The notes under the pieces: model-generated | Seen by the model: only the letters and a program-made list of their open reading frames with translations | Databases searched by the model: none | What the model was told of the DNA's origin: nothing | Translations under genes and position numbers: made by a program | NCBI GenBank assembly: GCA_964527555.1 | Contig: CAZGOG010000007.1 | Location: forward strand, 1-60,378 | Reading direction: 5' to 3' | DNA length: 60,378 nt | Source of the DNA: an uncultured Planctomycetia bacterium | GTDB taxonomy: Bacteria > Omnitrophota > Gorgyraeia > Tantalellales > Tantalellaceae | In this document: positions 6,196-52,435 of the stretch, piece after piece | How the letters are laid out: each line of letters starts with the position of its first letter | Numbering within the stretch: position 1 is the stretch's first letter

Positions 6196-6296
6196 TTGAT
6201 AGGTGTGGCGAGCAACCGAAAGGAGGGGATAGTAAGAAAAAAACTAGTATGACCTAACCGAAATAAGAGGTGCAAAAACCTTCCTGCATCTCGGAG

Positions 6297-6350
6297 ATGT
6301 CCTCACCGCCTGAGTCGTAACAAGCTTAGGGGTGGGGACATTCTTTTTCT
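6297..6350 (+). terminator. Intrinsic terminator after G1
   Basis: ATGTCCTCACC-G-CCTGAG / CTTAGG-GGTGGGGACAT stem (two G-U pairs) followed by TCTTTTTCT. Confidence 0.8.
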
Positions 6351-6466
6351 GGCAAGCAGCCAGTTTTATATTAATTTACATAACATATTATAAATATTAG
6401 ACTTGAGAATCCAAGGAAAAATTATTTTACAATATGTTAAGATTCAAAAAAGCTTGCAAAGAATTA

Positions 6467-6494
6467 TTGACTAGAATTAAGCATGTGTTATAAT
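6467..6494 (+). promoter_or_regulatory. sigma70-type promoter with extended -10 for G2
   Basis: TTGACT (6467-6472), 16 nt spacer, TGn, TATAAT (6489-6494). Confidence 0.7.
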
Positions 6495-6554
6495 AATGTA
6501 AACTTACAAGTTAAGAAATAAAAAAGTTTAAGCTAGGTTTTTGTTTATTCAATC

Positions 6555-27500: not shown

Positions 27501-30092
27501 GATTTAGTGCATGAAACGGTGCATCTCCTGCCGCATCAAGTTAAGCGTCATCAGCAGCATTTAAGAATGCCGCAGGAGCTAAGGAACGTACGCGACGATC
27601 TTGGCATTTACTTTGAAAGCGGAGATGAAGCCGACAAAGCGCGCGAAGGACTGAAAAAACTCATAGCGCTTATGATAAGGAATGAGTTTGAAGCTTGTAC
27701 CATCCAGCATGAATACCGAAAATTTCAGGCATTGAACCTAGGGTATAGCAATCTAAGAGAATATTTGGAGGCGCAGCTTAAAAAGGCTGATACTGCTGAG
27801 CGTAAAAAGCGGTATTATGGTATTCTTATCAGAGGTACAGGCAGAGACGATAATTTAAACGATGAGTTTATGATAGCTTTGGTTAGGAGGATATTCCCCC
27901 TCCAGATGCAGCAAAGGGTGGACAACATGGCTACATTTGAGGGCGTACTGCATTTTGATGCGACCCAGTTCAACCCATGGATGTTATCATGGCTGAATGA
28001 TCCGCAATATTGCGAGGCAGAAACCGCTAAAGCCGAAGATGTTGAAGAGGACCCGGAGAAAACCGCGCTTGAGATCCGAAACAAAGTGATCAGCGCCGCC
28101 GAAAAAGCGCGAAGGCGTATCACCGAGGAAGGATGGATCACGTCCGAGCAGAAAAATGACATAGCGGAACGCCTGGAGAGTTTTATAGGGAACCCTGTTA
28201 TCGAGCTAACCGGGGATAAGAAGTCTTTCCCGCTGGAAAGCGTATCAGTGTCCCCGGTTAAATGGGCTCTTAAGGTGCATTTTAAAGCGGCCAGCGAGAT
28301 CCCGGAAGAGGATCTTGAATCATATCTGGTGAGAGAGGCTTATCGCGTTCTTCCGCGCCAGGAGGAAAAGCGCAGGAAGATAATCGAGGTATACCGGGAA
28401 TTTGCCGGACCAAAATTCCGTCTTTTCTTAAATACCCTGACGAGGAAGAAGGAGCAAAAAAGTAATATAGCCAGGCGCAGTTCGAAAGCGTTTCTTGCCG
28501 GCGTCATCAACGAGGAGTTCGAAGCCTGTTCCGTCCAGCAGGAATACCGCAGGCGCCTCGCGCAGGAAGGGGGATATGAGGACCTTAAAGAGTATCTCCG
28601 AAACGCCAGGAGCCGGATAACGTCAAATCCGGCGGTGAAGAAGTTTATCGAAAAAATAAGTTTTTACACGGCGGAAGACGGTACATTAAGACCGGAACTC
28701 AGGATAGCACTACTTGAAGAAGAAGCTTCGGTCAACAGTAATGTAAAAGAGATGCGAAACGCGCTTATGAGCTTTGAGAGGATTTTCCGCGGGTGTGCGA
28801 AAGAGAAAAAAGAAAAATGGTTCCTTTCCTGGCTGGCGGATCCCGTATATTATGAGGCGCCTCTCGCCAGGCCCATTCCTTCAGAGAAGAAAGAGACGAA
28901 AGCAAAACAGAAAAAAGGCCGGCGGTCTGAAGCCATAAAAAAGAAGAGCATACAGGAAAGGATCAAGCACCTGCGTTTACTTGTAAGTACGCTTCCACGC
29001 ATCCGTTCGTTCCGCCTTGACCAGAAGAGCATATGCCAGATGAGGATAGCTAACGCTTTTGAAGCTTTCCACGGCAAAAGGATACTGGAGGCTGTCGTAG
29101 CCCTTCCGTCGGAGGTATATGCGAAGCTAAATGCAGATGACCTAAAGAAGCTTTCCGCGATAAAAGGCGTTGCGGAGGTAATCTGCCTAAATTCTTCCGG
29201 TGAAGAGGAGATGATGGGCGAGCTGCAGGCGAGAATAAAGGGAACCAGGCGTATGGGGGCTCTCATAGACGAAAAAGTCCTTGAAGGGGTGCGTGACGAG
29301 AATCTAACGGGTGAACTAGAAGCGATCATAACTGATTTTATAGGAAAAGTAAGTGATGATATTGCCCCAGCGTCAGCAGAAACTGTTGAAGAAGGCACAG
29401 CCAGCTCTTGCGTAGAATATATAAAAGACATAGCTAAGAAGAGAAATGAACATTATCTGGTGCACTTTGCGGACGGAGAGGACCTGCTTTCAGGTAAAGG
29501 CCCCATGATCGTTCCTCCGGGGCTTGAGATCGAGAGGCGTCGCGAAGCAGAGAAGATAGAAGACAAAATAGATCCGAATCACGATAAGTTCTTCATAGTT
29601 GCGCCGGAAGGGACCAGTACTAAAGAAGAAATAAACACCTTTAAAAGAGGCGTTATGGATCTCTGGATGCTTGAAGGCGTGGTGAGTGAGGATGATATTA
29701 TAATACTTCCGAGGAAGAAGGAAGGATACACGACAAGTGACCTCTATAAGTTGCTTGCGGATCATGCCAAGGACGGGATAGAGCCGGCAAGTAGTAACAC
29801 TGGCTTCATGTCGCTTAGCGGAAACTTGCGCTATGACGACAGTGCCGCGGAAAAAGACTTATTGCAGCTTAATATTGCTCCGGAAGCTAAGAGCAATATA
29901 AACCAGTATACAGTTTTCGTAAATCTTGTGCTGTCGCGGGAGGAAAACGAGATAAGCTATAGAATAGAAGGTCTTGAAGAGATCAAGAGCGGACTGTATA
30001 TCTACTTGCCGGAAGCCAGAGCCATTGATCTTGAAAGAGAAGTTAGGAATTATTACTACAGGCATCTTAGAGAGATACTAGTAAAAGCGTAA
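6555..30092 (+). CDS. Giant multidomain membrane protein G2 (7845 aa): signal-like segment, EreA/ChaN/Tiki-like domain, internal Tat-like motifs, large internal duplications, YD-like repeats, processive GT2, CBM-like domain, five zincin modules, shared C-terminal domain
   Basis: Uninterrupted ORF in the track. The start may be the ATG at 6588, which has AGGGA 6 nt upstream. Confidence 0.96.
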   Translation: MAGEYIKQGICMDIQNNRKSHFHEKTFHYKEVCPFFSSTKEDNSNYGIADWKKRNAFFIKCVSILLSIIFFHQQAGWTQEGKPVWTEIKSYDAYHEKLDNTSIDIPYDVANTQEALANGGDEVIINIQDAHASLAAQYSIAKLLDSLVANYDLEFIAIEGGSGYIDTSLLKTFPDKKVRDKAANILMEEGHMSAGEFFAVTHDESEIDLYGVEDDALYNANVESFRAVAGDRIERVDNINKLLKELENIERKVSSNELYTFSENCARHRDGEFSFSDHWKYIENLAENKKIKFNPEPELAKLVEAIRLEKTIDFSKANTERKRLIDSLSDIIGKAELEALVKKSLDFKENRISQATFHTYIIDLAAKHNIPADGYTNLIAFAEYVDIYESVDIVKLYRQMANLEKTVKEKLYRTGEEREFYALKRMLELAKKLYSLELTNDECADIESGYKDFTPARYASFIKDASSKYSLAISGDYDLSEVFNSIDEALNFYRDAEARNSAILANTVKRMRSSGKRVAALITGGYHTQGLTELMRQKKLSYLVVIPKFEDKRERPYIAILTNRKKPYEKVLETGKYQLAIEAIFRDKMDRESQKALFSLTYDLTMRDASIKPGERERKRRIWIEAYEARYDMLVELKGKRDMAKKMTPNEFRAFLAGKAAEEDSRKEGEKTAAEKTEEEKITEIVDFVIANDPDLYKLISRLLPTGNETTVKIRDEISVRLRSKGLEPTEDNILKVIRRLEIHYIENTTTSEPVIEVKFGREEPVQLSIRMSELAGEFADYVAFVKGGGELQDLAFTSEDRKFIEEKLTLLKTDLQALAVFEADDETRQLILRHTDLAIGALYSGLNTYPPDIREEVEDITFTYGSSRLIKDIVISCDTFEKAEDLAMKIGLYDGKTKREYSHTEIMALKGSFQLDEETVDEDDARRQFVVVKDWQVSRRDFLKGAGLGILAGSLLVSDENTALAEKPNGNLRMGQPEVLAGRAGTFKYVKRPLYDNGHELGVAIIRYSEKDPKGELILYNSYEKMLKARGVDMRYLPPEPRTKVNPGVLKEPVQRILSLLESEYPTEMKGDEEEKGIKGLNKVIKAERWCQIWADICSVHRMNEERAKEHLEGMYGFLKMVIKETKKRNERRLSGLNKRHPRERKVKMEFPSLMAAIMYDVLPFSETGEMNNRFLGLPEMLMLADYLQLELEKDICKNYMYTIAGVEEGKVEISEERVWQGRIEKTKFFDIIEDLTDKRYYWHMRVAMKTISGDIYKEGYQHNGDWEDYIGRLAVLEASRKSFFGYKDSEFYKRWRAKAGETLGDYNRRILRDNIDELDIVYRFMITQDLSPDEMEKLAPFLHGLEPELDNIFGSYEDEKAPELIRPWHGSYLAVILDNLKRLPYKPDYGPIVESEVREVRALLHVGRLLNAAKGLEVIELLKKKLGIDEIRKNLNKKMEFLLWMVKELQLSQDQMPDIYTAAHYVKILQTIPSLIKEGPDKGKYISTKYDEEAYYKRGEKIDKEIIKYYVVYYPPEGSEPVGKKKYKTFTPIVDQDGTREVHVTYGEDTYAREIWRVNDDAAESFDVKTAAINGKLVNKVIYKNGLRIIETVDDVDTPKGGVTVDARWLYDVFSKVFPRLATEKVKKFYENIIVPFIELVYPLAALSLLAKVQGVPLMSFDLGSSMAVAALMAAGAVFVTSHIIGLSTIINKLTGRAPPKIERASLIISTLISLARVFIILPVAVVVTNLCFGRPDLTIFVYLALDWLFHAKISSSAPGIMKWIERRTRKDVIKGEGKGQLRRDFIKEVLSFLTGGALIPAGDKTVAGESQAEGELKVAEKLPEPPEEVLEGLKMPMIDPKKTAAYYIPPDSKTGRVLFSSDKHKIYVHFYDDLKDPNFVYISSTAKKDMVVIDGVYHHIWSVYKVKEKSTEVGGMVHIDKMKIIGKAIKLKFDGHQIIDEADQPKEGGKEPEEIPEKAPEVSGEITFSSKGETALLKGLGAGETLGEPQLLAENTVLQQGCIKYPIYREGAEVGAAIVDVSPVMGELHESVISKVYFNETDKLIDLRRTPPEPRTKIDPEALEGPVKDILALLEREYPQEMTGQRKDGTSVEGAKALNGFVGIHRTEKRPGWCEIWANICSVHRMREEVAVEHLKGVRVFLEMIIGELKKRNTRREEEGKKKMELPPVLGQGMYGLLPLDETGEINNRFPGLPEILMLADFLQVQLIKHRFENTDIPDSLPHRIVSPESLFDLWINKKCEGIDTGIFSIVEDLSDGKDIIRARAQMKIKGAYIYDNMYQHYAGADKIGRLAVFDAAMECFPGYKRWKARPGESLYDYYYRIWMRNKDDLNIFYRFIVNQDMSPEELKRLTPFLRDLDPQLEEIFGSYEEMPLEDLGKEWHGATLADFLEQHKGERKKLDESMMVKVQAEDISGLLHTDRLLNAARGLGIADEVKKGVSPGKIQKELDKKIAFLKEIVRDFQKAQGQTPSIFTASHYVKNLQTVPALIQEGEYKDDKYISIKYNERDYYDKDIKTVQYYVLYNDELGKESFKTFTPMVDQDGRREIHVTYGGDSYAREIWRVDKDAAESFDVKTGRINGRLIERLENINGVRIIEPVKDTEYVKEGVTVHTRWQRVVATILLGTFGVTLPYEAGAAAMNAAILAAEVQTQRQLQLEIAEELPKPSPELLKDFEDAIANPKSPASYYIPPGSETGRVLFSALDRIYAHFYDDLKDPKFIYETSMAEDDLLEINGKLHHVWSVYEVVRKSTDSEGKVQIDETKLIGEVINLKFDKDTHQAASKGDRFANINTREVTYKTPDGKEHSDYYRYVKYVGDAPEGLKEYIFKRKKLDDGKFHLVAALDPKKADVTTDGELIIKGDEKDAIVKEYKYDKDYTWQYDCNLKTKNIFASPYNRVATKATSNAIVKLKSLSGYEDADGFVLPYDRGAFLKNVLEEYGYYPDGSLMWKKDHVNKQYTLYTEYTMLGRLCRLSGTIYDYTPETDTKGEELRSFSGYSEYETETFFAVIKGNPGVYYRTLKGAERADALLEASPNPQAGRMDITGILKEFEYNADGSLAKVWDYKLGEVAVYKWHRKFGTEKKLTDIGGDIYKFDGRKKETSGEPLRSFNGITDKTGAFFERTDEPDVYYWTEQGKLRAKALVKAKPDEAHDLMLVEKVIKHFKDSQIEIDGKNRIFELSIPGSLTKGERFICYGVEVEDPKSGKKLEDFGVKVEAVWQGKDAPISGIKVLEYYKQNMIPGKEKYAGNFGVDVYVLEDGKVAEKPFKTFRKLGPNSAERDHISKVVNDYADKYPENNLGRASDEELLNALFNVEGYEEGDDAFLRDVIDRALEMRGVLDGIFKQNNIKVLEQDKTLQNEILSHILYWTAAEDIDFDELLEKLPEASTIKGLMEYIHRKHKDFDNLLKEERYVIVLDTLTGCAKTMVETGRSKKDMEVVLRVWIRYEDESGTGAMNAGDVYKEIESGTSAIRNREYVWDIVKIGLAVTGILFLAAVFLRILRSLNSTKRIRALGPPAAGAGDAAALAEGAADAGEDAAGSPEEAGHGFAPKTVRVPMIIAGAALVLSWFMYTNDWSMWLVIPLAIISLYVLARSYALLHNGIRANMMVYGMSPWEAFNTELSFSVKRGGRYDTDAFEVLPATTRFFPPMFTRGILQILDYMLEVFDVLKDFKVSQLRDYVIDEYRIPISKKGRVAKTGDFVVEKVLDVKEDDTPSTFILGKTTPGAAMQEIIKRHESIRNHILALPALYLPAIFGYHRILVFLGLGSKRSGKKLFNRPINPPNKWAVKLKVKTRDDIEKEIKARRKTRDDKAQDFVGDISFDTEKAFKKAHYALNPRFKWPGFKGLVNVDYRWNLWGAGFLLTGAFIVYHNAMKVWTSGDWGGFGISAWVVAAVFMLLSGIINRKLIWDKAGFIVPFVSGLTVLMVNLLATSVIGGWTGFGLPMWGFGAFLVISSLIVGFKIKRGVWYPTEEKQTEALKILARQLGDIIEKVKEKITYGDDVLKAEQWKEVFNFPVRAPFGDPEDAVNIQMVEIDFLGYLEYCRDWTTFFTTSPNKNKYYFFSKYHTPPYDPQYFLPTFWVKGPAFTQLRTNMRRDGSPTEFISYGPAGDLTVQEGRGLPSIDTSIPALTAAVEGEEGNEENLGMIALMPGTEEETTVQFGPQYNLAYEPITHETPHNGQIAYRNSYQTAPWDNILKMLDQAKARLKDIKEAGERRYGEDFDPDNMAQYRQASQDDKKKILYAETRSVDSFKGFGGPGPESSSYIKFMKRHKLTIIFMSALFVLGTYGVYIGKSVLMSWNWIPDMTGMSIGMHTGSVFLAMVTIYMVMISIEKLILFFSKFFGNPEAITDEDILSVPPRILVELISEIEVKMRNEGRPIPSYLANINQLRVNVNNAGPVGDQAREQVRNIIMQASLETGNWAQRFHQNVSNFKWGYRNLSFSRKAAFFVPYLLALFILQIVHRVFGLYYFIARKGRILAEEKPTLWFLNRLRLETPLLKVISLINRPRHTVIGILEERRYLTPQQAADLRAVRGRFTNEDVLEHLNINAINHILKDNYISRRYGSLLRTGIVMDTTFGGTTGDNLWRMAKSAVDSYPGGVDVYLIFDDNDAVGLKQFEDTVQKIRNDPTMGDRVADRIYRLTFPAPLANLELTQRSQRMKPPMNVEAVMAIQHDFVLRHREPPEFMELVDQEDVLGELNLVTKACIRDIRERHVQEQLYLGCTTQEGLRWGIDYDKAVYGTAISRFFGRIFGNTPLSGLFPTGLAGEYHDMIEALTREANYPNTLIDLIRLKNTPGATALPWATSNNADERIRYILWCFLKSAGTKKEFIEKEFRRRNMPSVIQSELRQVPIKDPEWSKYSYMDYLIWHSTIQTGQTRLGFLFLGGTGNNFEWEDLSGVIPRLDANHNLTGFDFINWRHYFNFLLRPQREEIQREETIQHNRKKEEGLSFRPDLLVTRPSAIYREWVNKYMPTGTWDLFNIIEDSELGSRIALRGQKSTRLEGLYTQILEDELPAEGIKWWLQRSRWISVQTFSAVISHRPAAFMFFGQHIFAALAWGLIGTKLTLIPGIIAVLIAFYAGGWFSYFVGIGVSRLFRRIGWERNEQWQTDPLKTMGGFFLGWWRFQNMAYLSSAAFAGLAAGITLLVTALYFGITIFSTSFFVCLDGGIFQLLSYVTSTNLGTIPTMENWLITTMFGIIFFLNPQVQQTLMGWIVASINAPEDEESTRQQLWARIEDRGFRKLFGFDNEWILDPNNPPAAAVIHGPYPPINIDKYRDEGAINQLLARYHRFALNAIERNAQEIQDLLIEWTPLLLGKDTIQAMLTEIAHATSRGIKEEDFVKDKKIYAFLLKEWKTFISARGEHDFYEFIERRAKASRDGNIDPAINTANMFLFNSWKEFNAARKKQPVDPGKIGSIYVYKNAMMQAITESKSLWGYTHGRVTIGLKGALTGLGMLALTWWVLSALYLIPAFVTTTFIVLGLVMIIGWMVSLFVSIFIDNPNWKAGRSPQSKIGRLAYHGTMWFLRIPLMLIYFSGMIVAAAFAIYTALSAWVNEAFWLRGRQRISVTFLPGDRPTLANYIDVAILKSRAEGWAYFLILVAFFVICGLPAVKALEQERVNAIRTVTIEPIWQEFIKTPNENTARRLYDFAYWDAVKRDKGGVDLRLDSSGLIISKLGLREEKKMTPDEADTVFKGALIWIQAYRKALYDAGEENSLNAQYAFERVINGFETFCQRYEMMDRFEKYFPTEAISLLGEGFTATCDPDPGEVGLDATKKELLIKPDLEKDYIWIWPDSKAGNILDVYFDLPPEMVTIDMEGKEFVFEFFVPEDQMSAFTGRSIKAFYVDTEGRDCDVGGEEEIIQYEPLPEHQREQGTLVRVNVAPDKRSPSGFNFMAKRFFIRIDGNQNRPVSGESIRIISPRVQSRISLLDRLNYDWQNLNLFGTKTAPPRGQITPPPAQEVKPPAKPTIGSKRAQKAQRTSWLKRISHEAAQRVKEINQMRAAKPKVSRRGYSHGGRKPWGRTSLDIMLPEVLITAVIAIVVAILTLGVETNLVIYTVAAILVFSAAFMGALSLGAGIKYLRNKHPEELTPLEEGIRRSIKYYAPDVELQEEEAEEEQHFQALIDPAKAPQYYSEEIVFNASGYTGNSVDDIKEYLREENGTAVSVEGPKIGEITVVKNFEADARIAAQLVTYGINIKQLIQKDLAKAIRIRGPNLFQGLEDREMSLVLLDKSPSIFEDHKKNNFIGINRVLFDKIAKNTSKEVLEILLITGILHELRHEAGEGDEEKITKEDVSLIISLAAQKGVTIRSIIDVINLVSGESLLVEELEKTPSINVLAVKMITNAANRAIKNIEEKGWITTTHKDGILNLLRQIARGDVPCGTVYDTSLSYTERIMIDSLGRTRVEINTALFFNHSDMEHEADIVHEVVHFLPHQVAMIPLVNQLLPQVIGIQNSLSERAFSERIKADIDLREMNKRLWAIKVQGEAEAHSIGYEYCKNALHQESIKFKDYLLEKADYLEQVAVRGDVAARANRWLVQHLTEEGALDSRFKLWVMKIALHENTMNIIRQIAEAEGVDTSDETQYEQWLLAWVNNPEYGGIEPEGVKTEAPETAVSKRIKKVAGIVIQHMEKDGWIVSSHKEELIALLKEITEEGKFELFNDPARGMVMWIDEKRDNILQVNTALIGMYSDQEMESILIHEMFHRLPHQIKRRRRINEILEELKRKKPAADVFFWRNEEGNEVRELLKRLIALRIRNEVEAWSIQHEYRKHIAESLGFTDVRDYYRKCARETTSPGIREDSNIFIRTTQDDGTLGGEFKWMLLSIILLPLGASVARGLREMLKNTATAEGILSSDENQFKAWLLSWIDDVKYCEVEPEATPVKPLPAETVKPTQEPTESDVRKRMTRIASEVIRHIEKDGWITTEYAGDIVGVLRDIIEKGDFEIYNEPNDPWGLKVSPASHGAGHVLKANRPIIAMDSDEELETDLVHETVHLLPHQVKRHQQHLRMPQELRNVRDDLGIYFESGDEADKAREGLKKLIALMIRNEFEACTIQHEYRKFQALNLGYSNLREYLEAQLKKADTAERKKRYYGILIRGTGRDDNLNDEFMIALVRRIFPLQMQQRVDNMATFEGVLHFDATQFNPWMLSWLNDPQYCEAETAKAEDVEEDPEKTALEIRNKVISAAEKARRRITEEGWITSEQKNDIAERLESFIGNPVIELTGDKKSFPLESVSVSPVKWALKVHFKAASEIPEEDLESYLVREAYRVLPRQEEKRRKIIEVYREFAGPKFRLFLNTLTRKKEQKSNIARRSSKAFLAGVINEEFEACSVQQEYRRRLAQEGGYEDLKEYLRNARSRITSNPAVKKFIEKISFYTAEDGTLRPELRIALLEEEASVNSNVKEMRNALMSFERIFRGCAKEKKEKWFLSWLADPVYYEAPLARPIPSEKKETKAKQKKGRRSEAIKKKSIQERIKHLRLLVSTLPRIRSFRLDQKSICQMRIANAFEAFHGKRILEAVVALPSEVYAKLNADDLKKLSAIKGVAEVICLNSSGEEEMMGELQARIKGTRRMGALIDEKVLEGVRDENLTGELEAIITDFIGKVSDDIAPASAETVEEGTASSCVEYIKDIAKKRNEHYLVHFADGEDLLSGKGPMIVPPGLEIERRREAEKIEDKIDPNHDKFFIVAPEGTSTKEEINTFKRGVMDLWMLEGVVSEDDIIILPRKKEGYTTSDLYKLLADHAKDGIEPASSNTGFMSLSGNLRYDDSAAEKDLLQLNIAPEAKSNINQYTVFVNLVLSREENEISYRIEGLEEIKSGLYIYLPEARAIDLEREVRNYYYRHLREILVKA
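6900..8200 (+). other. Conserved N-terminal domain of G2 (EreA/ChaN/Tiki-like pattern), paralogous to G3 30600-31900
   Basis: IQDAH (His 6945), IAIEG (Glu 7029), RNSAILANT (8049), ALITGGYH (His 8133); nearly the same sequence is in G3. Confidence 0.6.
9369..9452 (+). other. Internal twin-arginine (Tat) signal-like sequence 1
   Basis: SRRDFLKGAGLGILAGSLLVSDENTALA|EK: full S-R-R-x-F-L-K consensus, hydrophobic stretch and AxA site, about 940 aa into the ORF. Confidence 0.75.
9520..14402 (+). repeat. About 620-aa internal duplication in G2 (A1 9520-11387; A2 12567-14402)
   Basis: Shared strings include PPEPRTK, W.EIWA.ICSVHRM, NNRF.GLPE.LMLAD, KTFTP.VDQDG.RE.HVTYG and YAREIWRV..DAAESFDVKT; short identical nucleotide stretches are also present. 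Confidence 0.92.
11904..12002 (+). other. Internal twin-arginine signal-like sequence 2
   Basis: LRRDFIKEVLSFLTGGALIPAGDKTVAGESQAE, directly after a four-TM module. Confidence 0.55.
12006..14879 (+). repeat. About 120-aa internal duplication in G2 (B1 12006-12365; B2 14523-14879)
   Basis: YYIPP.S.TGRVLFS...IY.HFYDDLKDP.F.Y...HH.WSVY.V...LKFD in both copies. Confidence 0.9.
20330..21640 (+). other. Processive GT2 glycosyltransferase domain in G2 with all catalytic motifs
   Basis: YP..VDVYLIFDDND (20337-20381), KP (MKPP), DQED (20619), LGGTGNNF (21204), WDLFNIIEDSELG (ED at 21498), QRSRW (21618); flanked by TM bundles. Confidence 0.88.
25371..28860 (+). repeat. Zincin array in G2: one HELRH module plus four tandem repeats of about 275-290 aa
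   Basis: HELRH 25371; HEVVH 25824, HEMFH 26643, HETVH 27510, degenerate REAYR 28332. Each repeat begins ..E..GWI and ends WL.SW...P.Y (AW in repeat 1), with a downstream E.EA helix. Confidence 0.88.
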
Positions 30093-30373: not shown

Positions 30374-33300
30374 ATGGGAAAAATGGATATGTATAGAAAA
30401 CATATAATATATAAAATTATCTCTGTCGTACTTATCCTCGTGTTCATCCACGAACAGATCGGATGGACCCAGGGAGGCAGGCCCGTCTGGGCTGAGGCCA
30501 GAGAATATGTCTCCACATACCGCGATAAACTGGACACTTCGAATATAGACATACCTTACGATATAGCTGAAAAGCAGGATGTTCTTATTAATGGCACCGG
30601 CGAAATAATAATAAACATCCAGGATGCGCACGCCTCGCTTTCGGCGCAGTACTCCATAGCAAATCTCCTGGACTCACTTGCCACTAATTACGATCTTTCG
30701 CTCATCGCGGTGGAAGGCGCTTCAGGGTATGTTGATACGTCCATACTCAAGACATTTCCCGACAAGGAAAAAAGAGATAAAACCGCCAAGGAGCTTATGG
30801 CCGAAGGACGCATGAGCGCGGGTGAGTTCTTTGCGGTAACGCATGACGAGACGGAAGTGAGTCTTTACGGCGTGGAAGAAAGCGAGCTTTACCGGGCGAA
30901 TCTTGACAGTTTCAGAAGCGTTGCCGCTAACAGGGCCGAAAGGATCGCCAATGTAAATGCGCTCTTAAAAGAACTTGATTCCTTAGGGGAGAAGGTCTTT
31001 TCTAAGGACTTCCGTGATCTTAACGAGAAGTGCCTGCTTCACCGGGAAGGGAAACTTACTTTCACAGGTTACTGGGAGTATATCAAAGACTTCGCCGGGA
31101 AAAAGAAAATCGCAAAACCGGAAGGAAAAGAGCTTGCCAAGCTTCTTGAAGCTGTCGGACTTGAAAAATCCATAAATTTCAGCCGCGCAAATGACGAAAG
31201 ACGCATCCTTATCGATGAGCTTAGCGAAAAGATGGATAAAAGCGGTCTTGAGGAGCTTGTCAAGCGGTCAATCGCTTTCAAGGACCAAAAGATCTCACAG
31301 GGCGAGTTTTACTCGTATCTTCTACGCCTGCCGGAAAAGTATGGCATAGGCCCCGAAAAATACACTAATCTCATAGCCTTTGCCAAATACATAGCCCTTT
31401 ATGAGTCGATAGAGATCTTCAGGCTCTATCATGAGATAGAAGCGTTCGAGGATGGTATTCGCCAGGAGCTTTACCGTACAAGCGATGAGATAGAGCTCTA
31501 CCGGATCATCAAGATGGTGCGCCTTGTTAAGCAGCTGTACAGCATGGAGCTTACCAACGGCGAGTACGAGTATATAAAAACGAATCATAACGGGATCAAT
31601 GCTTCCGGCGTTAGTGCTTTTTTAAGAGATAAATGCAATAAGTATAAAATCGCGATAGAAGGGAGCTATGATCTTTCAAGCATATTTGGCGGCATAGATG
31701 AAGCGCTTTCCTTCTACGAGAAAGCCGAGATGAGAAATGCGGCTATGCTTACCAATACCGTCAGAAGAATGCGCGCTGAAGGCAAGCGCGTCGCGGCACT
31801 GATCACGGGAGGATACCATACCAAGGGTCTTGCTTCCCTTATGCGTGAAAAAGGGCTTTCCTATCTTGTAGTTACCCCAAAATTCGAGGACGGTAAGGAA
31901 AGACCTTACATCGCTATCCTTACCAACAAGAAAAAGGCCTATGAAAAGGTGCTTGAAACCGGCAAATACGAGTTGGCTGCGGAACTGTTTTTCCAGGACG
32001 TGCAAGATACCTCGGATGGGGCAAAGAGGATGGATTTTATTCTGAGGCGCCTTTTCCCGGGTGAAGAGAGAATACCAGATGAATCCGCCCGTATATGGAT
32101 AGAAGCGTATAAGAACACGTATCAAAGGCATGTTGATTCTCTTCCGGAAGAAGACATGGCAAAAAAGATGACACCGGAAGAGTTTGAAAAAGAAATAATG
32201 AAAAGAGCGGAAGGTGAGGTTTCCGTGAAGCAAGCGCCTGAAGAAGAGGCGCCAGCCGTATCGACCGGCGAAAAAGAAACAGAAAAAAAGACGCCCGCAG
32301 AAAAAAGGCCCATGGGAATAAAAGGGCTCATGATAGCTTACTGGGTTTCACTCGGCATAATGGGTTTAAGCATAATAGACGTCATTTGCTGGGTGGAAGG
32401 CGCGGCACCCCTTACAGTTTATTGCGCGTTCAGCATAATGAGCGCGGTCTATGTAGCAGCGCAGGTAATCATTGCGCTAGGCATAGACAAGGCTTTTAGA
32501 AAAATAGGCATCAAAATATATGCAGACGAAATAGCCTGGACGGAGAAAAAGAAGATCGTTGTCACTCCCGCGTTTTATGTTCTTTCGAAACCTATCCAAA
32601 AACTCGTTCTTATCCATGAAAAACTTCACACCTCCGGACACGGCGAAACAGCCGCTTATGCTTTGGCGCCGTTTCTTCTGGTCTTATATATCGCCTTTCC
32701 TTCTCTTTCATGGTTCAAAGAAATGGAACCGTCAAAAATCATCTTAAGAGAAGAAGATAAAGAAGAGGAGTGGCAAATAAGAAAACTTAACCCCAGACTT
32801 GACGCCGAGATCCTCAAGAAAACGCCGCCTTTTAAAAAGCGTTATATCACTATAAGCGATCTTCACGGGATCTACCCGGCCGAGCTCAGGCGTATGCTGA
32901 GGAGCGTGGGATTTATAAGCAGCAAGGATGAGATAATCGCCCGTAACACGGTGGTGGTTATCGGGGGGGATACTATCGACAGGGGACCGGTATCACTGGA
33001 GCTCTATAAGTATGTGAGATATCTGCAGGAAGAAGCGCAAAAAACCGGCTGTGAAGTCATACGTCTTCTGGGCAATCATGAGCAGATGTTATATGACGGT
33101 ATGCGGGGCAATGACGAGTCTTTACTTTTATGGGTATACAATTTGTATCGAAGCGGCGACGAATGGGGGATAGACGCTTTTGATTATTTTTACACCCAGA
33201 AGGCATATTATAGCGCAGACACCGGCCAGGGTAAGGCGGACAAAGAAACCAGCGAGAAATTAGCCGTAAGCGGCTTAAGAGAGAAAATCAGAATGAATAC

Positions 33301-36300: not shown

Positions 36301-39300
36301 CGCTGAGGTGGTATTTGCGCCTAGCATGGTAGATTGCAGGAGTTTCCGGGATACACTGCTGCAAGAAGAGGCGTTTTGGGAATTTGTACAAGCAGAGATG
36401 GAAGAGATCGTTTCCGGCGGAAATGACCAGCCGTGGCGCGACATAAAGCTGGAAGGGACAGAAGCGGAAATCTCGCTTCTGGTAAATGCCGATACCCCGG
36501 AAGACATCAGAAAAGCCAGAGAAGAGAACCATGCCGGCGGAGTGGGGCTTGTAAGGACGGAATACTTGTTCAGCAGTGACGGGGCAATCGATGAAAACGG
36601 AGAAAGGCCCCTCGTTGATTATCTGGAGAGGTTTTTCGGTGTCAAGAAAAACCCCGAAAAACCCGAAAAAACCCTGAAAGAACTGCGCGAGTCGTCTTTT
36701 TTGTACAAAAAAACACGGGAAGCCCTTAAGGAAAAGATGGTAAAAGACTTTGTCGCGTTAAGCGAAGCCGCGGCAGGGGCGCCCGTTACCATCAGAACGA
36801 TAGATTTTCAGCTTGATGATCCAGGCAAAGAGACTTTAATACACAAATATCTTAAAACTGCTGATTATGCCCGGAAACTCTTCGCCATGTGCGAAGAGGA
36901 AGGTCTGACCCAAAAGGTGGAATCAGGCGTTGATTTCTACAAAAATCCACTGGGAAGAGAAATCCTGCAACTGCAGCTCGAAGCAGCTATGGAAGCGTAT
37001 CTTATAAGCAAAGAGAAGAACATCAAGATAATGTTCCCCATGATAAGCACAATAGCAGGAGTCGATAGGCTTATATCCAACCCGGATAGTGTATTGATGC
37101 ATGCCAAGATGCGGGCGCTTAAGGATACTAAACAGGAAGGTGCTGATGAAACCAGTTTTGACGCTATCCCTATAGGGATAATGGTAGAGACGGATATGGC
37201 CGTAAGGAACATCAGCGAGCTTGTAGCGAGAAAAGAGATAAGTTTTTATTCTATCGGGACAAACGATATATCGCGCTACCTCATGGCCTACGTCAGGATT
37301 ATCGAACAGTATATCGAGCGATATATCGAAAAACTTAAGAGTAAATCTCACAACATCGATAAAAGCAAGATCAGCGATAGAGTAAGGACGGAACTATCCT
37401 TAAACTACGGTGAGTCTGTAAACTATGAAGACTTCTTGATACACCTCATGAATGTCGCCAGATATATTAAAAAATACAAAAGCGAACACGATGATAAAGA
37501 CCCGGAGATAGGCGAGATAGTAAAAGCGTTCAAGGGAAAGCAATATGAATCATTTCCGAAACTCGATGAGGTAGTGGTGGAGCCCCTGAACAGGGACGAC
37601 CCGGATAATGCGAAGTATACGACGACCCTCCAGCAGGCCGTTTTGATCGCCATAACGATTGTTTTAGGCACGATCGCGACATATAACGAAAATAAAGCTC
37701 CCGACGAGAGGAAAGAGCTTTCCATCTGCGGTGAAATGGGAAGCTGGTATAACTTCCAGGTGTTTCTTGTGAAGAAGTTAATGAAGCTCGATATAGTGCC
37801 CGGTCAGGTTCCCTTAAGTCTCAGCATGGCACGCGGCAGGATACCGGCTGTTAACGTTTTCATACGCGGGATTAAAGAGCATCATTTGGAGACTGTCGAC
37901 ACTTTCCTGGAACCGGGAAAAGACATTTTCGGCGCTATACCGGTGGACCAGATGGCGGATGGAGTGGTAGAAAGGGTGTTTGAAGATATTTTTGCGCAAG
38001 AGAACGGCGATAGAATAAGCGTTCCGAAGATGTACGAGAAGTTAAAGCAAGAGCTCGCCACTAAAGGAATAAATGAGCTTAAAACCCCGGATGAGAGAAG
38101 AAAGCGGACGCTTTACACGCTGGAACTATTAACCAGGCTAGGCGGTCCGGAAGCGGTAGGGGAAACACTCCCGACCGATATAAAAGGGGATTTTCCGGTT
38201 TCCAGTAAACTGGATGAAGAAGCGATCGCAAAAAGAGGCCGGGAAATATTGACTGAGCTTGCCAAGAAAAAAGCGCAAAAAACAGAGGATAGCGCCCTTA
38301 AAGCGGCAGAGACTTTCGTCATAAGAAGCAATCAGGGACTGCACCCGAGACCCGCGTGTGCAATCATCGACAAAGCGGAAGAATATGGGGTCCTCCTCAA
38401 GTATATAGCTTATAAGCCGGAAGGGGAGGCGGCTGAGGAAGCCGGAGACATACTTCTTAGGACTTCTGATGATAAATATCCGGACCGATTGTACGGGACA
38501 CGTGCGCTGCTTGAAAAGAGTCTTTTAGAACTGGAAGCTACCGGTGAAAGAGCCCGGGAATTTTTGGATGCGTTAACCAGCGACGACATAGGCGTATATG
38601 ATACAGACCCGCTGACGGATACTGTCATGAAATTCATGGAGGTTTCCGAGGAGAAGCTTTCACCCGAAAGGTATAAAGAAGAGCCGGGTCAGCCGGGAGA
38701 GAAACTGCCCATCAGCACGAGAGGACTCATCCTCTCGGGTCTTTTTTCACTTTTTTGCACTTTAATAGTAACAGTTCTTGCCTGTCTTGTCGCAGAGATA
38801 ATAAAACAGCATTATCTCTGGATTTTTATCATTGCCTCCGGTTTCATATTCCATTTTGCCTATAAATTCGGCAAGGACTGGCAGCTGGCGGATGTAATAA
38901 TAAGGGCTTATGAAACAGCAAAAATAGCGCCTGAAGAGGTTTACCCGGCATGGACTGAGGATGAGACGATACATGTTTTCGTTAATGTTTATGATGAGAT
39001 CAGCAAAGAGTTCCAGGTGAAAATCCACACGCACGAAAAAGCGCATGTATTTTTAAACAGGCTTTTGAAGAAAGTAGGATTGCGTCAAGGCAAAGTCCTT
39101 ACCGCGATAAATCACTTTGCCGCGTATCAGTTTCCATGGCTTGGGCGTTTTGCTAAAGACGTAAAGACCCAGCCGGAATTTTATAGAAGAAAACCGGTTG
39201 CGCCATCCGAAACGAAGACAAACTGGGTTATCGAAGTCATCACCGTTTGTGGGGTTCTTTTGATCTTCGGGGCGGCTTTTATTTACATGGGTTATAAGGC

Positions 39301-42300: not shown

Positions 42301-45300
42301 TCATTCTCTTACGGAAGATATGCCCAGGTACGGGATGCGGGAAGAGGCTTTGCCCGAGTTTACCCTGGTCAAACTTCTTAGCAATATGGCGCTCATCAGC
42401 AAGGCGACATATTACAACGAGATGAAAAAAGCGGGCTTCATGCCCGCTGAATGGGGTACGGTCACAATCGATGAAGATCTTGAAAAGTGGCTTGATGGCC
42501 CCGGAGATAAAACTTTTTACATTAGCGACACTAATGACCGAGAAGAGCACAAGAGATTTGTCAAGACCATAGCCCAGCACTACGGGATAGATCTTTTGAA
42601 ACTGGAAAAAAATTTCATATATGTACACACACTAGCCCAGCAGCAAAAAGAGAAAGACCTTTCCGAAAGATTGGATGACCCATACGGCGTGCACATACAC
42701 CTTTTAGGGCATATGAAACAGGTGCTGGAGAAGGTACTGGAAGTGCGCTACGACCTAAGAAAAGACGGATATGATATAGAAGAGTTCATCGGCAGAGGCT
42801 ATGACGGTATTGTATTCAAAGGTAAGGGCCCCCAAGGCAATAGCGTCACGATCAAGATCAATTTTACCAATGATTATCTGGTTTTTGGAGTAAAGGGGGT
42901 AAGAGATCCCTTTAGCGTTGCCGATAAGTTCATGAAGCTTGCGGAGATAACGGGAGATAACCGTAACTTAGCCAAAATCAAGAAGATAAAGCGCGTTCCG
43001 GTCAGAGATGATGTTGTCGTCGTTGAGATCCGCCAGTATACGCCCGAAGGATATGTGCTTATGGACGGCGTGGCGCGCAGAGATTTCCGCAAGATGGGCC
43101 TGGCTGAATCGCTTGATGCGGCCGTACAGTTTCTGGAGTCCGAGAAGTCGCTGATGGACAGATCCTTTGTAGATACTGATGCGCCGAACCTTGAAAATTA
43201 CATCATGTCGCCGGAAGAGGACCTTACCCGGATAGATTACGGCAACGTCAAAGAGCAATCTGAGCTTGGCGATTTAAGCACGATCCAGGTAGTGCGGTGC
43301 AGGCAGGTGGCGATTCTTACAGCTTTAAGGATATTGACAGGGCAGTTGTGGTTTGAGCTCGCCCCTGGGACTAAGCAGCCCACTCTTGAGATATTTGCCA
43401 ATATCTTCGGCGAAGAATATAAAACTGTAGCAAAGGGGATATTTGAGGACATGGAAGAAGCCTGGGAAAGCGACGATAAAGATATAGCTAAGGTTTTCCA
43501 GCGATTAATCGATAAACTGAAGGCAAGGAAAGAGGCAGTTTTCCCTGGTCAAGACTTGCTAGAAGCGAATGAAGCAACAAGTACACCAAAAATTAATATC
43601 AATAAACCTGGATTGCTTATTACAGGGATCGACAGGTTTCATGAAGAACCCGATGAAGAGTACTACGAGCGATTAAGAAGTGTTTTACGGGATGGACTAA
43701 AGCCGCGTAAAGACATACCCAGAGAACTCTTAAAACGCCATCATCCTCTTTCAGTGCCTGACTTTGTCTCTCTAAGCATGGTCGGTAAAAGCCGTGGGTA
43801 TGCCGGTACCTGGGCTTGCATTAGTATTTATGCGCCAAATCCCAATCTTAGCCGTCCAGACAAAATACCCAAAGAAAAAATCGCTTTTATTATAAACCCT
43901 GATTACGTAAAAGAACACCCAGAAGCGTTTAAAGCAGTAGGGCCTTTCTTTAAAGAAAATTCAGAGCATTTTGCGGATTATACTGACGAAGAAGGAACTA
44001 TTTTTGGCGGTATTCAGTATTCCGAACCGCCATTACGGATGGTAATTTCACCTACAGTCGAGCCTATTGATGCTATGAAGGATGAAGTATGGTCAGAGGC
44101 GATACCCGCTGATGCAATTATTGGTGCAATAGTGTATAAAGAACATGCGGAAGAATTCAGAGACTTGATTGTTGATGGGTTTCCGGGAAAAGTGATACAA
44201 GTATTTGATCCAAACGGTAAGCTGCTTTTTGATACAGGCATAGGGTCTAAAGACTCTGGCGAAGCAGAGGCTTCCCGGAAGGGGCTTGGGATCATCTTAA
44301 GAAACATCTGTAAATACCCATTGATCTTCGTGTTGATGTACGGACTTGTCGACTTTCTTATAGGTGAAACTGCGAGGGGTAACCTAGCTCTTACGATAGT
44401 AAATATATCAATTACATTTTTTGCTACGGGAGTGGCTATGGTAAGGGTTTTTAAAGATTCTGGAGATGACTATATTGACGATGAGCCGGGGTCCAAGGGT
44501 GCGGGATTTGACCTCGCGGAAGAAGAGGAGAGTGTAGAGGAGGAAGATGAGAAGTGGGAATGGGCCATGTCGGAAAACGCCGAAGAAGTCGCGGATTTTT
44601 TCCTGGAACTTTTTAAAAAGAACCCGGCCTTATTGGGGAAAACGATATTAACGAAAGAGCTACACTCCGAATTAAATAATTTTCTGAGAAGAGAATTCTC
44701 TGAGACACGTTTCATGGAGACTTTGGACTGCGTATTTAATACGGTGTACTGTAGCGGTGAGTTTACGGATAAAAAATGCAAAAAAGTTATTATCAATGGC
44801 ATAAAGCCCTACCGCAAGAAAAGACGCGAGGCGCCTGCTGTATCCCCGCTCAGTAAGCCCAGAGCGCCTCTGGGCTCCTATATCCTCAAATTTTCAGATT
44901 ACGAGTGGCAGCTTTACCGAAGATTCGCTCTCAAAACAGGTTTGGACGAATTGATGCCGAATCTGACAGGCGGCAATTGGGACCAGTTTTTTAGGACGCT
45001 GGAGGCAGCTGAGGCGTTGGAGAATATGGGCGCCAGCATTAAAGAATTCGAGGCAAGGATCAGGAATGTCAAAACGGGGGTAGAAGGCCACCCAACAACA
45101 GGTTTAGAGGCGGATATGGTGATAACGGTAGACGAAGGGGATAAAAGGAAAAGATACCTGGTCGAACATAAAGAATCGGGAACGAAAGCTTTAGGCGCAG
45201 TCATAAGCACCTTTTTCAAAGAACCCGAGGGAAAATTCTCGCAGTGGGAAAGATATAAAATAACGGCTAAAAATAAAAAGGGCCCTGACCATAAGAGGAT

Positions 45301-48300
45301 ATACGACGGGGTTATCCTCGCTTGCGAGAGAAGGGAGGCTTCCCGCTTCCCATCGTCAGAGATGATACCGCTATCGGCAATACTTGAAAAAAGCTCTTTA
45401 ACGGCGGATAAAAAAGAAGCTATAAAGAAAAAAGCGGAGATCACAGAAAGCGTTGAGGAAGAGATGTTTCACGTTTTTACTTACCGGACTACCAAGCCCT
45501 CTAAACCCACCGCGACAATAAAAAGCATCAAGGACTGGATGGCGCCCGAGATGAATGATGAGGAGTATTCGCTTCGCATAGCGCCGCGCCTTGAAGAAGC
45601 CATCTTTTTTCTTATACCGATGCTGATAGGACATTTTGCATTTGGTATAGACAGTTTATGGACGGTTTGTTTAATGGCGCTTGCAAGAGGAGTATTTTTC
45701 TTTATGCACGAAGGCGCGCGGGAGCATGCCCCGCCGGAAAAGTACGAAATCCCGCTGGCAGTTTCAGTCTCTGGTTTTACTCTGTCTATTCTTCCGATCT
45801 TTTTTTCGGCACTTCTATTAAACCCCTTTATAGTAATTTTGTTTCTTACTTTTGCAGCCATTACCGGCCATTGGGCGGCCAATAAATTTGCTATTACCCG
45901 ACAGCTGACTCCCGCTGCCATTTCTTTAGAAGGCGACCCAGAGAAAAATTTCCAGGAAGCCTTAATAAAACTGAAAGAAGGCACGACAGAGGAGAAGATA
46001 GACGCCTGTAGTCAACTGGCAGAAATTGGCAGGACGGAGGCAATAAGACACATTATAAAAGCGGGAAGCGGTTACGGCGTAGATTCCAGGCTGAAGATCG
46101 CTGTAATAGACGCTCTGGCGACCCTTAAAAGGGTGCCGCTTAAAAAGCGGGAGACAACCGAAATTGGATCCAGTATCCCCGGTATCATCAATAGCGTTCT
46201 TAGCGAGATGGGGATATCTGAGGATAGCGTGAGGATCTGCGGCCCTTACGAGAAGATAAGGATCAAATTTGATCTTTCAGATTCGCCTAAGAACAAGATA
46301 CACCGCCTGGAAACCTTGCTGCGGGAAAAATTCGGCCTTGCTCACATAAACGCCAACTTTTATATTTGTGATCCCGAAACGCTTGTGATCGAATTCCAGC
46401 TAAGCGTTGAAAACCTGACCGCGTTCTGGCGGGCACTCGGGACTATGGATCTCAAAGTCGATGAGGAAGGCAATTACAGAAAGTTCACCATGGTGGAGCT
46501 TGTCGGCAAAATAAAAGAAAGGACCCAGATGCTGCTTGACGGCATGGAACTGGAGCTTGATATGCTTGATGCGACCCTGCCGGAAGATGCCGGTAAATAT
46601 GAGGATCCGAAACTATACGAGAAATACCGTTCGCTCTACTTCTTTGTCTACGGGGACGGCACCAATACAAATCCCGGTTTGATAAATATTATGCAGGACC
46701 CCGAAAAGATGCGCGCTATAAGCGACAGTGAAGACATGACGCGTTACAAGGGAGAGCGTGAGGCCAGTAAAGTGAAGCAGGTAGACGGGAAGAGGTATGT
46801 TTCATACGGGGATTCCCAGCTTTTAAAAGTGGAATCGGTCAAAGGTCGGATGAACTATTGTTCAGTCAATGACATGATTACGATGGCGGAGTCTAACCCC
46901 TATTTCGTGAACTATCTTGAACATGTGTACGAAGAAAAATACGGCGCTGATGGAATAAAACGATGGATCTACCTGGCCAGGGCCGCCGGAAGCGTCTTCC
47001 AGACAGCCTATACCATGGATATTATCCGCAACCAGGAATCCAGTGACAATATGTTTTTTATCTCGCAGGACACGGTATCTCCTTATGATTTATACGGAGC
47101 AAGGATCGCCAGTTTAGTGGGACACTCCGGTGACGATCCCGATAAAGATTTTCAGTGGCTTGAGAGTATAATCATGAAAGATCTGGATAATAAATATACC
47201 GAAAGAGAAGAAAAATGGCGTGAACTGCTTGATTCTATATGGGGGCAGCTCGAAACTTCCTGTATTCTGGAGGGTGTAAAAGCCGGCGAACATATTATGG
47301 TGGTGGATGAGATCGCTAACGGGACCTACGATTTCATGTTCAAATATATTGTCGAGAAAAAGACACTTGAAAAAGACCAGGAAAGATACCAGAAAGAGCT
47401 GCAGGAGTTGTGCGAAAGAGGAGAGGGCGAAAATGGAGCGGAGAAAGGAAAAATAAGACCGCCCCAGCCGATATACGTGGATATATTTGTCGGAAAACCC
47501 AGAACGGCTGAGATCAGAGGTTATCCGCGGATGGAAGCTGGCAAAATCATGGAAGATTTCGGGTTAACACGGTCTCAGGCTTTTGAAATTATAGAAGCGA
47601 TTTCGACCGTGGCGGATTTTATGCCGCACCCTGTCAAGGTAAGCGACGATATAAAGCCTCCGGTCCTGGATTCGGATTTCCCCATACAATTGGAAGAAAA
47701 CGATGTACTGGTCAGCAGTTACCTCAAGGCATTGCTTGGAGTAAACGGTATCATCGAATATCACGATACGATTTGTTTTAACCCCATAGTAGCTATGCTT
47801 AAAAGTGACAATGATCCTGAAGTCCGCAAGGCGGCAATTTCGGCGCTGGTTAAGTTTGACTATGCCGATATGGCGGAACGAGCGAAAAAAGTACTTATTG
47901 AGATCTCAAGTGAGGAATCCGATCCTTTTGTAAGGGGCGCAGCCGCAAACGCCGTGATAAGTATTATCGTTCGTCAGCTGGGGGATTCCATAAGATTTCA
48001 TGAAAGCGGCATCGTTGAGGTTTTGGACATAAGAGAGCTTATGAAGAGAATAGACGTTATCATGGCGGCAGTAGACAGTCCTTACGCCCCGGCAAGGGAG
48101 TTTGCTCTGCATATGATATCTGTAATCAGTCCGGAATTTTTTAATCTTGTATCAAGTAAGCGCAGTACTTTGCCTGTTTCGTCAAAACCGATCATGGATG
48201 CGGCAAGGAAGAATAACTTCGCAGTTCCGGCGATAAACATAGGGCTTGGTAAGATTTCTCTGCATCTGCAGGCTGAAGCTGTCTTGAAAGCGGCAAGAGA

Positions 48301-52405: not shown

Positions 52406-52435
52406 TTGACAAATTTAGTAAAAAATTGATATACT
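52406..52435 (+). promoter_or_regulatory. sigma70-type promoter with extended -10 for G4
   Basis: TTGACA (52406-52411), 18 nt spacer, TGn, TATACT (52430-52435). Confidence 0.7.

Follow-up and report, generated by a model that had tools for sequence, protein, structure and literature searches.

A predicted PD-(D/E)xK nuclease domain set between membrane helices inside a giant Omnitrophota-type protein

Contig CAZGOG010000007.1 of assembly GCA_964527555.1, from an uncultured bacterium placed in the Omnitrophota by GTDB, was analyzed over a stretch of 60,378 nucleotides (nt) that we call the window. One of its giant open reading frames (ORFs), ORF C, encodes an internal domain predicted to have a PD-(D/E)xK nuclease fold, with transmembrane (TM) helices on both sides. 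Judged by sequence comparison and structure modeling, the domain represents a new, very small family inside this well-known superfamily, ordinary in fold and chemistry. From the computed fold, homology and TM flanks we infer its activity, membrane side, substrate and role: it would be a membrane-tethered, probably cytoplasm-facing, substrate-restricted nuclease module of the giant protein, a reading to which we assign a probability of roughly 0.55.

The domain and its motif residues

The domain and the residues expected to form its active site are located in the window as follows.

44873-45487, + strand: PD-(D/E)xK domain, aa 4834-5038 of ORF C
45050-45052, + strand: E4893, second E of 'EFE' on strand beta1, the invariant acid and candidate metal ligand
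45113-45115, + strand: D4914, the 'PD' aspartate on beta2 ('EAD-MVI' here, 'NPD-IVV' in archaeal relatives)
45164-45172, + strand: E4931-H-K4933 ('LVEHK'), the (D/E)xK motif on beta3, with E and K invariant
45242-45256, + strand: Q4957-W-E-R-Y4961, the QxxxY motif, opening the helix after the short helix that follows beta3

An earlier sequence-only reading of this DNA had placed a restriction-endonuclease-fold nuclease here (aa ~4853-4989) on the strength of an E...AD...ExK...QxxxY signature. Its motifs all lie in frame at the positions it gave: EAAEAL (starting at aa 4877, nt 45002), EAD at 45107-45115 (in LEADMV, starting at nt 45104), VEHK at 45161-45172 and QWERY at 45242. The acid that it counted as the first of the signature (E4877 or E4880, in EAAEAL) is not conserved, and the invariant acid is E4893 instead. 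The window copy has 'AD' where the canonical motif has 'PD'. Homology is detected over a core of aa 4867-5003 (nt 44972-45382), and the last strand of the domain, FHVFTYR, comes after a helical insert of approximately 45 residues that is not found in the relatives.

A small family of giant-protein modules and stand-alone proteins

Searches that covered approximately 15 billion proteins yielded seven further sequences of the family. When 1.84 billion representative proteins were scanned in full with HMMER, using aa 4830-5070 as the query, four proteins came back, the query itself among them. One is P0003, a 2,689 residue protein (NQU95641.1) from contig JABMQJ010000020.1 of the Candidatus Omnitrophota metagenome-assembled genome (MAG) bin.346, which matches at aa 1578-1689 with 44% identity (E=6e-6); another is the 293 residue P0004, with 36% identity (E=5e-4). 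Profile searches added P0005 (273 aa), P0006 (317 aa), P0007 (296 aa) and a partial sequence, P0008. Full-length stand-alone relatives thus number four (P0004-P0007, 273-317 aa), each joining the nuclease core to a conserved N-terminal region of about 150 residues and unknown fold. P0008 carries the NCBI label Candidatus Altiarchaeota, and the 36-kb contig of P0004 is archaeal since it also carries Nop, ribosomal L37e and LSM genes. The stand-alone relatives lie at these positions:

Locus L001, 10001-10882: stand-alone relative
Locus L002, 1309-2262: stand-alone relative
Locus L004, 2298-3119: stand-alone relative
Locus L008, 1700-2590: stand-alone relative

The relationship holds when the search is run from the other side. 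A hidden Markov model (HMM) made solely from P0004-P0007, the full-length stand-alone relatives, re-finds aa 4867-5003 of ORF C at 37.7 bits (E=1.2e-4, scaled to 1.84e9 sequences) and P0003 at 32.2 bits, and it finds nothing else in the four giant ORFs of the window; no paralogue of the domain occurs in the other three. ORF C and P0003 have only two regions in common, an N-terminal module of about 650 residues (27% identity) and the nuclease domain (37.5% identity). Neither the JGI metagenome contigs nor the IMG/VR viral contigs held new members; among GTDB genomes the only one was the Omnitrophota MAG that encodes P0003, and a search of a 5.8 G word-indexed database with the single domain sequence gave no match. 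By these searches the family is very small, extremely rare and without an existing profile. A 2,940 residue repetitive surface protein (P0002, E=4.5e-17) was rejected as a relative, its score being an artefact of 16 short stretches summed.

Overall identity to the window sequence ranges from 23 to 44% across comparisons, and against this background a few positions are invariant in all six aligned sequences: F-E (E4893), D4914, E4931-x-K4933, Q4957..R4960-Y4961 and Y4977.G4979.I4981. The archaeal members carry the textbook form 'NPD-IVVE ... YLVE-V-K', and at the C-terminus of helix alpha1 an acidic residue recurs, occupying either of two neighboring positions. The aligned cores have no conserved cysteine, the window domain having a single one (ILACER). 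E4893, D4914 and E4931-x-K4933, plus Q4957xxxY4961, make up what appears to be a complete catalytic set, and because all of these positions are invariant at such low overall identity we infer that the domain is catalytically active.

The same alignment bears on a different idea, that the module has kept the nuclease fold without catalysis and serves in nucleic-acid binding or scaffolding, for example by tethering DNA or RNA to a membrane platform. PD-(D/E)xK folds can be reused for binding; the 'AD' of the window copy and the helical insert before its last strand would suit such a change, which would also sidestep self-damage by a cytoplasmic nuclease. Conservation of E, D, E-x-K, Q and Y across bacterial and archaeal members is instead what a working active site would be expected to leave, and we consider loss of catalysis quite unlikely.

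The motif string in a charged giant protein

Proteins of the giant ORFs in the window are rich in the very residues that the motif demands (9.6% Glu, 7.6% Lys, 6.3% Asp). Over their 19,775 aa the pattern D-x(8,25)-[DE]xK-x(10,40)-QxxxY is observed 8 times, versus 6.8 +/- 4.0 in shuffles, and with a leading E added 23 times, versus 13.8 +/- 8.1; only when hydrophobic strand context is demanded does the pattern become rare (1 observed, 0.2 expected). The bare motif is thus not above chance, and it is conservation among homologues that, at the level of sequence, makes the domain real. That the string arose by chance in a Glu/Lys/Asp-rich protein and marks no true domain would agree with the 7 to 14 occurrences expected of the loose pattern and with the lack of a Pfam match. 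Significant homologues with an invariant motif, a confident predicted fold and structure-search lists dominated by PD-(D/E)xK nucleases (both below) leave this explanation effectively refuted.

Predicted fold and relation to known nucleases

AlphaFold2 (AF2) modeled the window domain with a mean predicted local distance difference test score (pLDDT) of 80.9 and a predicted TM-score (pTM) of 0.81, giving helices (H) and strands (E) in the order H40-55, E58-74, E77-92, E95-104, H111-118, H128-137, E150-157, with the last strand at 203-209 in the numbering of the model. The core of P0004 (aa 133-293) was modeled with pLDDT 87.4 and pTM 0.86 and has its elements in the same order. In both models the core runs alpha-beta-beta-beta-alpha-beta, beta2 bearing D and beta3 ExK, and in the window model Q4957 and Y4961 stand at the start of helix 128-137, the second helix past beta3.

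Foldseek comparison of the P0004 core with the PDB found the Bax1 endonuclease (E=1.2e-3, probability 0.99) and AF1548 (E=3.8e-3, probability 1.0), then SfsA, the R2 retrotransposon endonuclease, R.BspD6I, Can2, Cas4 SSO0001, McrC and Hjc. Against BFVD the best match had E=1.1e-4, and the named matches were mostly 'PD-(D/E)XK nuclease superfamily', 'RecB family exonuclease', 'Endonuclease I' and 'Restriction endonuclease'. A PDB sequence search with the single domain returned only noise; the family sequence profile once more ranked AF1548 first (E=0.05), its alpha1, D and ExK falling in register. Among the profile libraries there were weak hints from Pfam AHJR-like (E=0.049), REase_II and PADLOC Cas4 (E=0.017, one of six members), the Cas4 match covering exactly D..ExK..QxxxY. 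The AF1548 profile match and the weak AHJR-like and Cas4 hits point to the same superfamily as Foldseek does. Membership in the PD-(D/E)xK superfamily is well supported by these comparisons and models, so the proposed restriction-endonuclease fold and its intact D...ExK...QxxxY are upheld by family invariance, AF2 topology and Foldseek lists made up nearly entirely of PD-(D/E)xK nucleases. In sequence and predicted structure the family has a RecB/Cas4-style QxxxY without iron-sulfur (Fe-S) cysteines, plus an AF1548/Mrr-style alpha1-beta1.

Among PDB entries, AF1548 of Archaeoglobus fulgidus (PDB 1y88, deposited as a 'protein of unknown function') comes closest by sequence profile: its helix alpha1 corresponds to alpha1 of the family, the D of 'EIDVVAE' to that of 'NPDIVVE', and 'MIECK' to 'LVEVK', and its Foldseek TM-score is 0.39. 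It differs in having only about 17% identity, below significance by sequence alone, with no QxxxY alignment shown, and in being a small soluble protein rather than a module of a membrane giant; a literature search on AF1548 gave only accession-number noise. Bax1, of the archaeal XPB-Bax1 complex (PDB 6p4o/6p4f/6p4w) and the top Foldseek match of the family core, is an archaeal nuclease of PD-(D/E)xK type, which requires no immunity partner, but its TM-score is 0.27-0.35 at 15% identity, it has no sequence-profile match, and an XPB-like helicase partner is not seen beside any family member. RecB-family nucleases and Cas4 have the motif order D...ExK...QxxxY in common with the family, in which Q and Y are invariant; the Foldseek lists include Cas4 SSO0001, AddB and AdnAB, and the BFVD list has 'RecB family exonuclease'. 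Yet no member matches Pfam PDDEXK_1 or Cas4, the four-cysteine Fe-S cluster of Cas4 and AddB is not in the window domain, and there is no helicase or CRISPR context.

Membrane flanks and topology

Hydropathy bears out the claim that the domain is internal and lies between two membrane modules, with hydrophobic helices flanking it on both sides.

44282-44452, + strand: upstream TM hairpin, aa 4637-4693, two hydrophobic helices with a short loop ETARGNL (hydropathy scan)
44453-44872, + strand: linker, aa 4694-4833, an acidic low-complexity stretch, a helical segment and a basic, proline-rich connector KKRREAPAVSPLSKPRAP
45596-45883, + strand: downstream 4-TM module, aa 5075-5170, with EEAIFF, FFFMH and HWAAN

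The hairpin lies about 140 residues upstream of the domain, across a linker that has no Pfam match, and the 4-TM bundle about 35 residues downstream. Over both TM modules of ORF C, lysine and arginine are concentrated on the flanks and the middle loop, the short loops being almost without them; the upstream hairpin has 3 and 2 of these residues on its flanks and 1 in its loop. A TM hairpin also precedes the domain of P0003 and leads out into a strongly basic stretch (SKKHPKSDLKQFVRALR), and hydropathy reveals no TM module after the domain. By the positive-inside rule, which is a weak argument, the domain probably faces the cytoplasm of the producing cell. Directly before the P0003 hairpin, at aa ~1422, stands a WHEARH (HExxH) motif.

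Membrane side is what separates the preferred reading from that of a prey-directed or extracytoplasmic DNase, which would lie outside the producer's cytoplasmic membrane, or be inserted into prey, and degrade prey or environmental DNA for nucleotide salvage. Such an enzyme would fit the episymbiotic or predatory life proposed for Omnitrophota, whose giant proteins are predicted to have most of their domains outside the cell and have been linked to predation on archaea (10.1101/2023.11.21.568195), and an external nuclease requires no immunity protein. It would also suit the relatives: those other than the two giant proteins all stand alone, both whose origin can be judged are archaeal, and Omnitrophota and Altiarchaeota are reported in the same deep-groundwater and euxinic-water studies. 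The positive-inside counts (both ORF C modules and the P0003 hairpin) nevertheless put the domain on the cytoplasmic side; neighboring modules of ORF C (PEP-utilizing, HPr-like, kinase-like, P-loop and aldolase) need cytoplasmic cofactors, and the Pfam scan gave nothing signal-peptide-like or secretion-associated in the vicinity of the domain. On balance we hold an external location to be unlikely.

Toxin framing and gene neighborhoods

The sequence-only reading had linked the domain to polymorphic toxins and remarked on the absence of an immunity gene. The toxin framing did not survive: no family member tested matches the Tox-REase, Mrr_cat or RecB models of Pfam at E<=10, both giant proteins carry the domain internally (aa 4834-5038 of 7,277 in ORF C, aa 1575-1706 of 2,689 in P0003), and neither variability nor a conserved partner was found. 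Two near-identical copies of the ORF C protein from one 90% cluster (P0001 and P0010) are 99-100% identical across the 441 aa compared and 100% identical in the domain, the one substitution lying outside it. The domain has the superfamily fold and type of catalytic signature in common with Tox-REase toxins, and differs from them in its position (not C-terminal) and in having no profile match, no immunity gene and, by a Pfam scan of ORF C, no toxin-delivery or pre-toxin domain.

It is correct that no small ORF follows the gene: the next gene is the giant ORF at 52572, and the 364-bp gap before it holds only mechanical ORFs, none longer than 48 aa on the + strand or 82 aa on the - strand. P0003 is likewise without an immunity gene and is followed by an ABC permease. 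Within its locus (L006 1-20348), P0003 lies between two RND (AcrB-type) pump genes and a sugar-uptake and metabolism cluster (ABC permeases, GH130, MFS, phosphoglucomutase), and it has no Pfam domain at E<=0.01. Stand-alone relatives are single genes with unrelated or housekeeping neighbors (histidyl-tRNA synthetase with an RNA-methylase-like gene, an ABC transporter, Fic), and their neighborhoods contain no conserved small partner and no conserved methyltransferase. Because the toxin framing is unsupported, the lack of an immunity gene is expected and not remarkable; that free-standing members also do without an immunity partner makes an indiscriminate DNase unlikely.

A more specific proposal was that of a latent nuclease, inactive while tethered and freed by proteolysis through the CPBP-like protease module said to come next, or through other peptidase modules. 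Three motifs at the TM boundaries of the 4-TM module directly downstream (EEAIFF, FFFMH, HWAAN) do follow the CPBP order EExxxR, FxxxH, HxxxN; HExxH motifs adjoin TM helices in ORF C as well as preceding the P0003 hairpin, and cleavage of giant proteins into pieces has been speculated upon in print (10.1101/2023.11.21.568195). The arginine of EExxxR is missing, neither Pfam nor NCBIfam yields a family for the 4-TM module at E<=10, and no such module lies beside the P0003 domain, so CPBP homology is unproven and should be taken as a lead, not a finding. Nor could a cleavage site or a protease-substrate link be shown. With the domain internal and invariant between the two near-identical copies, no Tox-REase match, no delivery domains and stand-alone relatives that lack immunity partners, a latent toxin is improbable. 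We think it just as improbable that the nuclease was captured from archaeal hosts or prey, was built into a predator's membrane-anchored giant protein and, where the two cells touch, attacks or processes nucleic acids of archaea, perhaps once the adjacent 4-TM module has released it by intramembrane proteolysis.

Proposed role

Our preferred reading, a tethered nuclease module on the cytoplasmic side, would work as follows. The domain would be held at the inner membrane between the TM hairpin and the 4-TM bundle and would remain tethered while acting as a Mg2+-dependent phosphodiester hydrolase, probably on the side of the producer's cytoplasm. Its substrate would be a restricted nucleic acid (a particular structure, a modification or foreign DNA), as opposed to the broad substrate range of an indiscriminate toxin, and such restriction would explain why neither the domain nor any relative has an immunity partner.

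Several points weigh against this reading. The topology comes from a positive-inside count applied by hand; TM predictions for Omnitrophota giant proteins are unreliable, and most of their domains have been placed outside the cell (10.1101/2023.11.21.568195). Pfam, NCBIfam, PADLOC and PHROGs give no significant nuclease profile for the domain or the family. The AF2 alignments held only 5-6 sequences (5 for the window domain), Foldseek TM-scores are modest (0.3-0.5), and the window model itself retrieves FokI, PaqCI, AddB, BamHI, MspJI, MunI, McrC and HamA at only E=0.03-0.5. Finally, an active nuclease that faces the cytoplasm and has no known regulator would be awkward.

The host protein and the rest of the window

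Four co-directional giant ORFs, separated by gaps of 281-364 bp, occupy the window (1-60378), and it contains nothing else, a marker gene included.

Window start to 6195: ORF A, at least 2,064 aa, cut at its start, opening within a Glyco_trans_2_3 match
6555-30092: ORF B, 7,845 aa
30374-52207, + strand: ORF C, 7,277 aa, uninterrupted, containing the nuclease domain
52572 to window end: ORF D, at least 2,602 aa, cut at its end, with an APH phosphotransferase match

Public assemblies hold three more copies of the ORF C protein in its 90% cluster, two of 7,272 aa and one fragment. Pfam matches in ORF C are Metallophos (aa 825-943), PEP-utilizers (1889-1957), PEP-utilizers_C (2031-2312), HEAT (~5800) and class-II fructose-bisphosphate aldolase (F_bP_aldolase, ~6186-6324), and a hydropathy scan finds about 15 hydrophobic helices. 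With more than 7,000 residues, many TM helices and PEP-utilizing, aldolase, HEAT and phosphotransferase-type modules, ORF C fits the giant proteins of Omnitrophota (the 'Archaeovorin' or 'multi-enzyme metabolic' class). It differs in being small for that class and in lacking SecA-DEAD and C39 peptidase matches, which are reported to be typical. The scan of genome contigs found P0003, from an Omnitrophota MAG, as the only relative of the ORF C nuclease domain; the N-terminal module was compared only locally with P0003. In the main text of two preprints describing Omnitrophota giant proteins (10.1101/2023.11.21.568195 among them) the word 'nuclease' is absent.

That N-terminal module, unannotated and approximately 500-650 residues long, is common to ORF B, ORF C and P0003, in each of which it comes right after an N-terminal hydrophobic helix. 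Pairwise identity is 27-29% (E 1e-56 to 1e-61, in a small database), and none of the three copies has a Pfam match.

6882-8315: shared N-terminal module in ORF B, aa 110-587
30596-32521: shared N-terminal module in ORF C, aa 75-716
L006, ORF 5279-13348: shared N-terminal module in P0003, aa 90-741

Further observations concern modules of ORFs B and C far from the nuclease domain. An HPr-like active-site string, 'GLHPRPA', lies at aa 2655-2661 of ORF C (window 38336-38356), approximately 340 residues past the PEP-utilizers and PEP-utilizers_C (enzyme-I-like) matches. At motif level, with no PTS-HPr Pfam hit reported, this suggests that an enzyme I-HPr-like phosphotransfer pair is fused into ORF C. 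The HExxH motifs that adjoin TM helices in ORF C are HEKLH and HEKAH (window 32615-32629 and 39032-39046), and ORF B ends in four tandem HExxH modules, about 150-290 residues apart (window 25371-27524). Profile searches assigned no family to these HExxH/TM modules, save for a sub-threshold SprT-like match of one ORF B module (E=4e-4). They are possible zincin peptidase modules and as such would be relevant to self-processing of the giant proteins.

ORF D stands somewhat apart from its neighbors. Its G+C content (0.38-0.40) is below that across ORFs B and C (0.43-0.48), and a strong sigma-70-like site precedes it in the gap, at 52406-52435 (TTGACA, 18 nt, TG-TATACT; 11 of 12 matches), with which ORF D would have a promoter of its own. 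Past the end of ORF C, the gap shows no hairpin resembling a terminator.

Implications

Three cautions follow for work on such proteins. A D...ExK...QxxxY string in a giant protein rich in Glu, Lys and Asp is not evidence alone; a missing immunity gene is no signal until a toxin context has been established; and searches with pieces of giant proteins can return false positives summed over repeats, as P0002 did.

What is noteworthy about the domain is, first, its setting, inside a giant Omnitrophota-type protein with membrane modules on either side, and second, its distribution, in giant proteins of Omnitrophota and in mostly archaeal stand-alone proteins, one of them labeled Altiarchaeota. The giant proteins of Omnitrophota are mostly unannotated, 'dark' sequence, to which this family adds a confidently folded module with an intact predicted active site. 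Because the domain is compact (~200 aa) and could be expressed alone, it may offer a handle on the function of the giant protein and on the side of the membrane at which it acts.

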